Of a DNA stretch of 48,264 nt, positions 33,001-36,000 are shown piece after piece. This stretch comes from a virus (lineage: Duplodnaviria > Heunggongvirae > Uroviricota > Caudoviricetes). The position numbers were made by a program. Position 1 is the stretch's first letter; each line of letters starts with the position of its first letter. The stretch lies in the IMG/VR virus record IMGVR_UViG_2718217789_000011. One strand, written 5' to 3'.

Positions 33001-36000
33001 GGTCACGGCGGCGCTTATCCGGTGGTTCTGCAATAATTTTTATTGCCAGCCGTCCGGACAGGCTTAATTTCAGCCGCTGCTGGCGAACAATAAGCGCCAC
33101 AGCCCGGCGATAACGCTCACCGGCTTTTGATACAAAATATGTGCTGCCACGACGTCGCCAGTAGGTGTTCACCGTCGGCGGGTAAGGCAAAACAAACTCT
33201 ATACGCATCAGTAACCTCTTTTACCCGAGCACGCCGGTTGCAAAAGCGTGATCAAGAAAACGAAAAATTAAATCAACCTGGGAACCATGCTTTTCTTCGA
33301 ACGCCAGCGGATCCGCATGAAGCTCGTTGTGATGCTCCCGACACAGCGGTAGCGTGAAAATATCGTGGGATTTTGTTCCCATTCCACCCTGACCATGACC
33401 AATCAGATGATGAGGATCGTCCGCTGGCTTACCACAACACGCACACGGCTGTGTCTTTACCCAGCGTGTGTATTTCTCATTTACCCAGCGGCGACGTTTA
33501 GGTCGTTTCATGAAGGATTTCGGAGACTCCGGATCAACGGCAATGCTGACCACCGTCTTTTCCTGTGGTGGGTTCTGTTGCTGGTGGGTGTGAGGCGGTA
33601 GCGCAATATTTTTTGTGCGCTGCTTCAGTATGCTGGTGGCGGTCTGTTCTCCCGGTATGATGTCGCTTTCACGGTATACGGAGCGGATTTTTTCCGCCGG
33701 TAATCCCAGAGAACGACGCGATACTGCCTCAGGTAATGCGTCCACCACCTGATTGCAGACTGCCCACCAGGATAATTCAGCCAGCGATAATTCCCGTTCC
33801 TGTATGCCATTCATTGCGTGGCGGATGACGTCAATCATCCAGGCGGCCAGATTCTGTTGAGCAAGTTGCTCAAGTGATTCGGATGTCTGGTCGCGCAGCT
33901 GGTTGTCGCAGTGCCAGCACAACACCATCGCGCCGGTACCGTAACGATGTATGACAGTTTCGCTGTGATGATAATCACCATGAGGCCACTGGCAGGATTT
34001 CACGTGACGTAATAACCAGTCAGACAGTGCACCAGCGCCACCCGCAGCACGGATCACCCGCTCATCGCTGAAAAATGGCAGTAGTGATTTATCTTCCGCC
34101 AGCGGCTGGTGAACGGCAGGTACAACCCCGGACGGCAGAGCTCGCATGCTTTTTGGTTCCGGCTCCACCAGTATTCTGCCGTTATGGAATGCTGACATTG
34201 ATTCACGGCCTGGCTTAACGATAACCAGACCGAGTTCCGGTACCAGAACAGGTCGAAGTAATACCCGCACATTACCTCCAGATCCGTTGCTGGAATGTGC
34301 GGGACGGACGCGGTGGCCGTTCGGAGTAAGGGAGCCTGACGGAGATTATCCAGTGACGGTAGTCGAGGCTAAGGGCTTTTTTAACCTCGCATCCGCGCCT
34401 GCGGTAACACTGAATGAGCCATTCGGCCTGTTCTTCAGTGCATGGGGGGTGCTGGTACCAGTCAGATTTGAATGCGTGAAAACACCGTCCGCGCCTGCTG
34501 GCAAAGACGGCAGAATCATCAGAATTGTATAATTTGGTATCGTGCGCCATCGGTTGTCTCTGCTGGCGCAGCAGGTGCCAGTTGTTCAGGCTGGCGTGCG
34601 AATTGTAAACCAGAATGCCAGGAAAAAACAAAACCCGCCGAAGCGGGTTAAGTGCGGGTGCGTTGAGGATGCCTGATTCATCAGAGGTGGCGAGGGATTT
34701 CTCCCCCGCCAGGTCTCTTACTCCTCAGGTTCGTAAGCTGTGAAGACAGCGACCTCCGTCTGGCCGGTTCGGACTCGTACCTCGCAGAGGTCTTTCCTCG
34801 TTACCAGTGCCGTCACTATGACGGTTAAACAGATGACGATCAGGGCGATTAACATCGCCTTTTGCTGCTTCATAGCCTGCTTCTCCTTGCCTTTCGGCAC
34901 GTAAGAGGCTAACCTAGATTTGCCGTTCATAGATTGAGCCTCAGATTAATGTTAGGCGTCTTGCAGGACGCGTAATGTTAACTGGGGCTTTTCTCTATCT
35001 GCCGTTGGTGTTCATGCCCGAGGCAGATAGCCTCAAGCACCCGCAGCTATTCTACTTAACTTCCCATTACCTCGCCAATATGAAATCGGTCAGAAAGACA
35101 GACGTCCCATAAGGACAACAACGGAAAAAGAGATTTTGCTTGATGCTATTTACCTCTGCACCATGAAGTTGCGCCAAAATCCCAGTGGTGATAACAGGAA
35201 TTTGGTTGTTGGTGATTGGGGAAAGAAGTACGTTAGACTGTGGGTTAGTTCATTGACATGATAGTTACCTGCCTTCAATTTCCTAAGCAAGCGATGTAAA
35301 CGATAATCAATATCAAATGTATTGACAGGTAAAATAATAACGATGTACCTTTGCTGATAACATATATCAGTCTTAAATCATAATGGAGGTAGATAAAATA
35401 ACTAAACACACACAACAAATTTTTTATCAGTGACATAGCATATCTTAAGCATCCTTTAATGCTCATGGGGAGAACGCATGACTAAACATATGGACATTCA
35501 TTGTCAAACACGCATATTTAACTCAATTAACCATGACACCAAATATAAAATATGTATTTTTACTCCAAAAAACATTAAAAAAAATAATGCAACTCTTTAT
35601 ATACTTGATGGGAATAGTGCCAACAATTACATTTCTGATATTCTGCCTGTTATTGATGCACTACCCAATCCACCAGTGTTAGTTACACTTGGTTATGAAT
35701 CTTGGAATAACCTTAGCATTCATCGCCGTGCTTACGATTATACTCCTGATGGTGAAAATGCTATTGTTGATAACTCTAAACCAGCATGGATCTACTTTAC
35801 TGGTGGAGGAAGCCAGTCTTTCCGAGAATTATTACTAACTCAGATCATGCCATGGGTTAGTACTATTGCTCCGAACAGTTCCAGAATCGGTATATGGGGA
35901 CACTCGCTAGGTGCTATTTTTGTGCTTGATTGCTTAAAAAATAATTCATGCTTTAACTATTATTATATATCTGCACCATCACTTCTATGGCAGAATGAAA

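Follow-up and report, generated by a model that had tools for sequence, protein, structure and literature searches.

The window analyzed here, a 48,264-nucleotide (nt) stretch of Caudoviricetes DNA (IMG/VR record IMGVR_UViG_2718217789_000011), appears to carry an intact hok/mok/sok type I toxin–antitoxin module within a lambdoid prophage of Escherichia coli O157:H7, a prophage resembling Sp4/CP-933M and lying beside serT and the hya genes. We place the probability of this reading, which rests on sequence and includes the proposal that the module is the complete form of the hokD (relF) remnant of E. coli K-12, at about 0.9. The locus spans approximately 34623–35078, with the toxin messenger on the minus strand and the antisense RNA, Sok, on the plus strand. 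An earlier sequence-only reading had recognized a hok-type type I locus encoding a 51-residue Hok-like toxin, an identification borne out by matches to Pfam HOK_GEF and Rfam RF01794, and every element of the locus can now be placed. The interval proposed then, 34718–35000, falls within the locus but proved too narrow: the promoter and the messenger 5′ end reach 35078 and 35042, respectively, and the fbi element and terminator extend the other end to 34623.

The locus is already known. The 481 bases around it are 100% identical in many E. coli O157:H7 chromosomes, where RefSeq names the open reading frame (ORF) "hokD: type I toxin-antitoxin system toxin HokD", and the family is represented in Pfam, Rfam and PHROGs. 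Its discovery value is little, as the antisense-RNA paradigm is a textbook one and a 93%-identical sister locus, hokW–sokW, has been characterized experimentally. What the present coordinates add to RefSeq, which marks only the toxin ORF, are the Sok RNA, mok and the regulatory boxes; the window copy also appears to illustrate the state of K-12 hokD before relBE replaced its regulatory half. A related hok locus is found in 4732 of 5426 complete E. coli genomes, at a median of 2 and a maximum of 10 places per genome, and in 78 phage records under names that include MokW, HokD, gef and host killer protein; the enrichment of hok in prophages has already been published (bioRxiv 10.1101/2025.08.07.668861). 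Within the window, a pattern search for a second tac box or Sok tail found none, leaving one hok locus only.

The comparisons that follow draw on 51 loci encoding Hok relatives, gathered from representative genomes, of which the 39 intact ones were aligned from the messenger 5′ end to fbi (alignment A1); these come from Escherichia, Shigella, Kluyvera, Pseudocitrobacter, Citrobacter, Photorhabdus, Pantoea, Erwinia and Kalamiella. Degenerate copies also occur in E. coli and Shigella chromosomes (L004, L005, L041 and L045), in which the tac element has mutated, relE has taken the place of the upstream half, or the frame is scrambled.

The toxin gene and the predicted fold of its messenger

The toxin is encoded by hok at 34718..34873 on the minus strand, a frame of 51 amino acids (aa) plus a stop codon (MKQQKAMLIALIVICLTVIVTALVTRKDLCEVRVRTGQTEVAVFTAYEPEE; MKQQKAML...TAYEPEE) that belongs to Pfam PF01848 and phrog_251 and corresponds to RefSeq hokD. 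Against a cut-off of 22 bits, HOK_GEF (PF01848) scores 80.7 bits for the 51-aa form (E = 5.8e-23, with the domain covered full-length) and 79.4 bits for a 70-aa form considered below; in PHROGs the 51-aa form hits phrog_251 ("MokW-like host killing") with E = 1e-32. The NCBIfam Hok and HokA models score below their cut-offs, and the subfamily is not assignable from the NCBIfam hidden Markov models alone. The conserved Shine–Dalgarno (SD) sequence AAGGAG lies at 34883..34888 (-), 9 nt before the AUG. Scanned against Rfam, the whole window gave a single RF01794 ("sok") match, at 35042..34868 (-), scoring 105.6 bits against a gathering score of 59 and covering all model positions, 1-157 of 157. 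A chance match cannot account for the hok observation.

In frame with hok, and sharing its stop codon, are the 70 codons of mok at 34718..34930 (-), whose ATG at 34930 lies 57 nt (19 codons) 5′ of the hok ATG and has GAGG 8 nt upstream. The sequence-only reading had noted an overlapping, mok-like frame upstream of hok; it is present and does overlap, but is an in-frame extension to 70 aa rather than another frame. Relative to the hok AUG, the mok start lies in frame (57 nt) in 25 of the 39 homologs, at 58 nt in nine and at 56 nt in four, and is lost in one; its position, 56–58 nt upstream, is thus kept in 38 of 39, while its frame is not conserved. Because it is the start position that is conserved, and not the frame or the peptide, the sequences fit a role for mok as a leader for translational coupling.

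One might instead suppose that the real product is the 70-aa protein from 34930, a longer Hok isoform for which mok is not a mere leader. With mok in frame, a start at 34930 necessarily yields an N-terminally extended Hok, and this ORF is annotated, as "MokW protein", in several phage records. Yet 13 of the 39 homologs, and R1-type plasmids as well, have the mok start out of frame (56 or 58 nt), no part of the locus varies more than the opening codons of the extension, and the Pfam domain begins only at residue 25 of the 70-aa form. In the sister locus, moreover, HokW is toxic and the 51-aa hokW ORF alone suffices (Takada et al. 2021, PMC8621323). We consider it unlikely that the longer isoform is the real product, and favor the 51-aa toxin with mok as its coupling leader; the two are not exclusive, and both products could be made.

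Near the end of the hok frame, a small hairpin at 34726..34740 (-), CAG[CUUACGAAC]CUG, holds in its loop the Tyr47 codon UAC (34735-34733) followed by G, as in a TadA-type editing motif. UACGAA is invariant in the 39 homologs, and the 3-bp stem around Tyr47 covaries (CG:21/UA:17, GC:22/AU:12). A TadA motif for A-to-I editing that recodes Tyr to Cys has been described for Hok toxins (bioRxiv 10.1101/2025.08.07.668861), and the predicted Tyr47 hairpin matches it.

The messenger would be transcribed from a promoter, TTGGCG-18-TAGAAT at 35078..35049 (-), that a promoter scan matches to consensus at 9 of 12 positions. Its -35 hexamer, TTGGCG (35073..35078), lies just 5′ of the onset of conservation among homologs, and its -10 hexamer, TAGAAT (35049..35054), is conserved in hokW together with its spacing to GGGTGCTTGAGG. 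The 5′ end is placed at 35042, 7 nt after the -10, where the Rfam model begins with GGGUGCUUGAGG and where the homology of distant relatives starts within a few bases. At the other end, a terminator scan locates an intrinsic terminator at 34623..34649 (-), with a 7-bp GC-rich stem (34649..34632) followed by a T run. The full-length hok mRNA predicted from the Rfam start, the distance to the -10, the onset of homology and this terminator is about 420 nt (34623..35042, -). Separately, approximately 25 nt beyond the hok -35 on its 5′ side, a terminator-like hairpin and T run (35117..35103, -) could shield hok from transcription reading through from the early-right operon.

When folded, a 423-nt transcript (35042..34620) has a z-score of -8.2, and its first 12 bases pair with fbi, with one bulged C. 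The two partners in this minimum-energy fold are the tac element (GGGUGCUUGAGGCU, 35029..35042, -), at the mRNA 5′ end, and the fbi element (CCUCAACGCACCC, 34656..34668, -), at whose last base, 34656, the homology of distant relatives stops. Scored per sequence, at least 11 of 13 pairs are kept in 39 of 39 loci, and the window copy keeps all 12 of its pairs. Compensations are seen in GGGUGC/GCACCC versus GGGCGC/GCGCCC and in GAGG/CCUC versus GAGA/UCUC and GAAG/CUUC, with compensatory changes at positions 4 (U-A/C-G), 11 and 12 (G-C/A-U each). Because MAFFT places the bulge differently among subfamilies, only the first 6 pairs were scored on the alignment, and the distal half was scored per sequence. 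By this evidence from pairing and covariation, the tac–fbi helix is the fold-back of the R1 paradigm.

Further helices flank and bracket the coding region. Pairing reaches 99.4% in a 5′ leader hairpin at 34993..35032 (-), where 2 pairs show changes in both partners, and 97.4% in a stem-loop of the 3′ untranslated region (UTR), at 34689..34710 (-), where 3 pairs do. The nearly invariant ucb box (UUAGCCUCUUAC, UCUUAC; 34901..34912, -) pairs in the RNAalifold consensus with the dcb box (GUAAGAGAC, GUAAGA; 34713..34721, -), which overlaps the hok stop codon and whose GUAAGAG is kept in 38 of 39 homologs (GUAAGGG in the remaining one) despite differing C-terminal codons. This helix is 100% paired in the 39 sequences but nearly invariant, such that covariation speaks neither for nor against it. 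RNAalifold independently predicts the tac–fbi, leader, ucb–dcb and 3′ UTR helices. Counted over the 39 loci, the mRNA helices are 99.0% paired with 8 compensatory pairs; 0 of 500 shuffles were as good, and slid partners reached 41–52%.

Folding of the 3′-truncated mRNA yields a predicted Sok-target hairpin at 34905..34942 (-) (GAGGCU...AGCCUC), which holds the mok SD (GAGG), has the mok AUG within its stem, and carries a loop, ACGGCAAA, that is complementary to the first bases of Sok. An equivalent hairpin forms in 36 of 36 distinct homologs, with a mean z of -3.5.

The Sok antisense RNA gene

Alignment to the hok/sok family, the check suggested along with the sequence-only reading, placed not only the fold-back elements of the messenger but also the promoter of sok. 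This promoter, located by homology in combination with published sokW mutagenesis primers, comprises a -35, TTGCCT, at 34887..34892 (+) and a -10, TAACCT, at 34910..34915 (+), separated by a 17-nt spacer. The Takada primers map exactly to a 933W-type Stx2 phage (L056), which was then aligned to the window: the two are identical over the sok -35, spacer and -10, probe YO-597 matches at 30/30 positions (34885-34914), cloning primer YO-406 is also identical, and the sokW clone corresponds to window 34871-35024. The -35 lies inside both the pACYC184-sokW insert and probe YO-597, while the -10 is the very hexamer destroyed in the "pro-less" sokW mutant (primer YO-421), which alters exactly TAACCT (Takada 2021).

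By analogy, then, a promoter sequence-identical to that of the window has been shown to work in hokW–sokW, where sokW expressed from its own promoter neutralizes HokW, with RNase III and Hfq partly needed (PMC8621323). The identity of primers and promoter, together with homology, therefore identifies the antisense promoter that the sequence-only reading could not place. That reading had allowed for a decayed locus in case neither an antisense promoter nor a complementary RNA could be found; homology places both, the promoter at 34887-34915 and a predicted RNA of about 71 nt.

Sok itself is predicted at 34922..34992 (+), with a 5′ tail at 34922-34935, a hairpin at 34936-34990 and a U run. Its ends are put there by fold, by covariation and by the length of sokW, which has 71 nt complementary to the hokW leader and is visible as an RNA on northern blots (PMC8621323). 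The earlier expectation of sok on the plus strand around 34880-34960 was right as to strand, and the RNA reaches about 30 nt further. Read in the plus sense, the 39 loci present a common order: CTCCTTG(A)CC, a 17-nt spacer, TAACCT or TAATCT, a variable stretch of about 15 nt, CCTC, the hairpin and GGGGCTTT(T/C). The first of these, which holds the sok -35, is found in 36 of 39 homologs, with its TTG(A)CC core invariant; the variable stretch includes CAT, the complement of the mok AUG, and the CCTC that follows is again invariant.

A 72-nt Sok sequence folds at -32.6 kcal/mol (z = -6.8) into a 14-nt free tail and a long hairpin. In a Sok-sense alignment (A2), pairing in the hairpin amounts to 91.9%, with compensatory change at 7 pairs; 0 of 500 shuffles were as good, and slid controls reached 34–55%. 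The register of helix 2 differs between the long- and short-hairpin subfamilies, and pair 39-74, "broken" in 27 sequences, is an alignment artifact. In all 39 loci the hairpin is more stable when read in the Sok sense, exceeding its mRNA-sense counterpart by 9.3 kcal/mol on average, and several of its G·U pairs would be A·C on the other strand, one U·G being invariant. Strand asymmetry and covariation therefore settle the Sok strand as plus.

This bears directly on the Rfam match, whose literal strand would put the antitoxin RNA on the minus strand. RF01794, named "sok antitoxin", is modeled in the hok-mRNA sense over 157 nt. The match does lie on the minus strand, but the model it aligns to opens with GGGUGCUUGAGG, at the 5′ end of hok mRNA, and closes at the hok AUG; it is thus the hok leader containing the Sok complement. 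Not only do the G·U pairs form in the plus sense alone, where the hairpin is 9 kcal/mol more stable throughout the 39 loci, but the U run and the promoter are on that strand as well, and sokW RNA is detected by YO-592, a probe of mRNA sense (PMC8621323). We give a minus-strand antitoxin a vanishingly small chance, and the Rfam match was rejected as the location of Sok on the strength of the model alignment and the strand-asymmetry test. Automatic annotation based on RF01794 would give the antitoxin both the wrong strand and the wrong length.

Among the seven closest paralogs, pairwise difference peaks at 0.37-0.45 at 34931-34918, a segment that serves as Sok tail, target loop and mok codons 2-5, and is 0-0.05 in the Sok hairpin and the hok coding sequence. 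In the 11 genomes with co-resident copies, the tails always differ (2-9 edits in about 15 nt), even where the 35-55-nt hairpins are 0-3 edits apart. It may be, although we lean against it, that a diversification hot spot, made up of the Sok tail of about 14 nt, the matching apex of the target hairpin and mok codons 2-5, gives each co-resident copy its own antisense specificity; the variability could instead reflect relaxed constraint on the leader peptide and hairpin loop. Were the tentative proposal of a hot spot true, prophage copies within one O157:H7 cell, which may occupy up to 10 places, would be regulated independently, and the loss or induction of one would go unmasked by the Sok of another. 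The hypervariable tail raises the question of cross-talk between paralogous type I systems.

Sister loci and proposed action

The hokW–sokW locus of Sakai prophage 5 (Sp5) and 933W-type Stx2 phages shares with the window locus its architecture, its position in a lambdoid prophage and 93% DNA identity over the locus. The hok -10, tac, leader hairpin, sok -35, spacer and -10, ucb, hok SD and first 33 Hok residues are identical, and in each case mok is in frame with 70 codons and Sok is about 71 nt. The two differ at approximately 9/12 positions of the Sok 5′ tail, equivalent to mok codons 2-5 (TGAACGGCAAATC in the window, TGCTGAACACATG in hokW), in the Hok C-terminus (TAYEPEE in the window versus VDYESEK in HokW) and in the 3′ stem-loop, where the substitutions are compensated. 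Beyond fbi the two sequences are unrelated, and the window has a canonical terminator at that point. The window prophage is without stx and apparently defective, in contrast to the Stx2 phages that carry hokW–sokW. In the latter setting, sokW vanishes after mitomycin C treatment, and hokW–sokW speeds lysis and doubles phage release (PMC8621323).

The same order of elements is found in hok/mok/sok of R1, as represented by an R1-type copy (L054): promoter, tac, leader hairpin, Sok-complementary hairpin, mok start, ucb, SD, hok, dcb, 3′ stem-loop, fbi and terminator, with RF01794 covering both R1-type and window loci. R1 Hok is about 44% identical to the Sp5 Hok (PMC8621323), a close relative of the window Hok. 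Whereas the window mok is in frame, that of the R1 type starts 58 nt upstream, out of frame, and is annotated as a separate DUF5431 protein; the window Sok hairpin is approximately 18-20 nt longer than that of R1, and its tac–fbi helix has a U-A pair and a one-base bulge, whereas a C-G pair without any bulge is seen in the R1 and Photorhabdus types. The chromosomal hokC (gef)/mokC/sokC loci of E. coli (L013-L019) likewise have mok in frame (69 codons) and the same tac, ucb, dcb and fbi boxes, at about 74% DNA identity, but differ in a Sok hairpin of 37 nt versus 55 nt in the window, in their -10 context, and in belonging to the core chromosome and not to a prophage.

The structural prerequisites of the R1 paradigm are present in the window copy by the evidence of sequence and covariation. 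On that paradigm, TTGGCG-18-TAGAAT would drive a stable hok mRNA of about 420 nt, which begins near 35042 and runs to the terminator at 34623. Sequence and covariation suggest that in the full-length molecule tac pairs with fbi and ucb with dcb, and, as for R1, this closed form would be neither translated nor bound by Sok. Slow 3′ trimming, again on the R1 model, would strip the terminator and fbi, whereupon the leader is predicted to refold into the hairpin at 34942-34905 that presents its Sok-complementary loop. The unstable Sok of about 71 nt could then pair by its tail with the target hairpin and block mok translation, with RNase III cutting the duplex and Hfq helping, as for hokW. Should Sok no longer be replenished, as might follow loss of the element, shut-off of host transcription or prophage induction, mok would be translated from 34930 and read-through of the leader would open the hok start, so that the 51-aa Hok inserts into the inner membrane and causes depolarization or lysis, by analogy with R1 and hokW–sokW. 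We infer 3′ processing, refolding, RNase III cleavage, mok–hok coupling and membrane damage from these two systems.

Comparison with K-12 illustrates what the window copy has retained. K-12 HokD (relF), in the Qin cryptic prophage, is identical at 50 of 51 residues, with one conservative change, I34V, and the DNA is 97.7% identical over window 34887-34624, from the hok SD to the terminator. Synteny is the same, the K-12 order quuQ (ydfT), ydfU (DUF968), rem, hokD corresponding to Q, DUF968, small ORF and hok in the window. The homology breaks off at window 34887, the first base of the sok -35, and relBE (relE) lies upstream in K-12 instead; K-12 hokD therefore has neither a hok promoter nor tac, and it likewise lacks a mok start, a Sok target and a Sok gene. 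Because relBE abuts at 34887, the relBEF arrangement removed the entire hok regulatory half. Unlike the third gene of K-12 relBEF, the window hok has its full regulatory region and no relBE upstream. On these alignments, the window locus is the intact ancestral form of K-12 hokD.

It is conceivable that the window copy is nevertheless a decayed or silent relic, like K-12 hokD, with hok/sok-like sequence but neither expression nor killing, and several points weigh against an active, intact module. The sok -10, TAACCT, is weak, matching TATAAT at 3/6 positions only, for which reason a simple consensus promoter scan missed the sok promoter, and the ends of both the hok mRNA and Sok are predicted for the window copy. 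The pair counts rest on structures derived from the same alignment, which favors those structures. In the truncated mRNA, the partner of ucb in the minimum-energy fold is the second GAGGCU copy, with which it forms the target hairpin, and no tac–ucb helix appears; because the thermodynamic fold does not reproduce that helix, the tac–ucb step is carried over from the R1 model. In earlier tests cited in a preprint, the chromosomal hokA, hokB and hokC loci gave no post-segregational killing (bioRxiv 10.1101/2025.08.07.668861). K-12 hokD is itself a truncated remnant, and the host prophage appears defective, with frameshifted structural genes and insertion sequence (IS) elements. A role in phage release like that of hokW may be moot here, given the defective prophage of a nearly identical copy in strain PV15-279.

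Against decay stands the integrity of every element: the two promoters and two terminators, the tac, fbi, ucb and dcb boxes, the ORF, and the start codons of mok and hok. All 12 tac–fbi pairs are kept, whereas the degenerate copies L004, L045, L005 and L041 have lost tac or the frame; the sok promoter has exactly the sequence of the functional promoter of sokW; and the Hok peptide differs from K-12 HokD only by I34V. We regard a relic as highly unlikely, and an intact hok/mok/sok module as the reading that these features favor. Its role is uncertain because its prophage looks defective: it may aid lysis on induction, as hokW–sokW does, stabilize the prophage, act in abortive infection, or do nothing in a defective prophage.

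Prophage neighborhood

On the minus strand, the gene order around the locus is replication genes, DUF1627, DUF977, an AT-rich island with an alpha/beta hydrolase gene on the opposite strand, hok, a 92-aa ORF, DUF968, RusA and Q. The placement of hok in the nin region by the sequence-only reading thus holds, in that hok lies between the replication genes and RusA/Q in a nin-equivalent position. Its assignment of a YbcO-like neighbor fared less well, as the 92-aa ORF at 34272-34550 has no Pfam or NCBIfam match and matches only phrog_1212, of function unknown. The "esterase island" described on the other side is indeed an AT-rich island, but its gene encodes an alpha/beta hydrolase for which the Pfam Esterase match is weak and below cut-off. 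The island (35100-36700) has 29-39% GC against about 53% in its flanks and lies directly upstream of the hok promoter; it carries one plus-strand hydrolase gene at 35478-36251 (phrog_8493), and the whole looks like a moron insertion.

The ParE pair mentioned in the sequence-only reading exists, as PaaA2/ParE at 41628-42106, such that a type II pair lies approximately 7 kb from the hok locus. An HTH regulator (41199-41600, +) precedes a PaaA2-type antitoxin (41628-41819, +; PF21217, E = 6e-19) and the ParE toxin (41819-42106, +; PF05016, E = 3e-17), a module spanning 41199-42106 that we take to resemble PaaR2-PaaA2-ParE2 of O157:H7. Derivation of K-12 relBE from this pair was considered and rejected, there being no DNA homology and the pair being PaaA2/ParE.

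The prophage of PV15-279 (L055) lies beside tRNA-Ser and hyaABCD and includes tccP2 and dicB; its terminase, portal, J and tail-fiber genes are frameshifted and IS elements are present. It presumably corresponds to Sp4/CP-933M of Sakai/EDL933. Window 27431-36786 is 99.9% identical to it and collinear. Collinearity over the full length of the window was rejected, with an IS element elsewhere and one segment inverted. In PV15-279, ISEc8 (IS66 family) interrupts the DUF977 gene near hok and is absent there in the window (approximately 36786). A 2.4-kb segment at window 20818-23257 is identical to that of PV15-279 but inverted, and about 1.6 kb (23948-25572) is also inverted. The other RNA genes of the window comprise, at 29627-30143 (-), an STnc100 small RNA (138 bits) and three tRNAs downstream of Q (Ile, Arg and Arg in a related genome), and DicF lies at 43779-43830 (+) with 76.9 bits.

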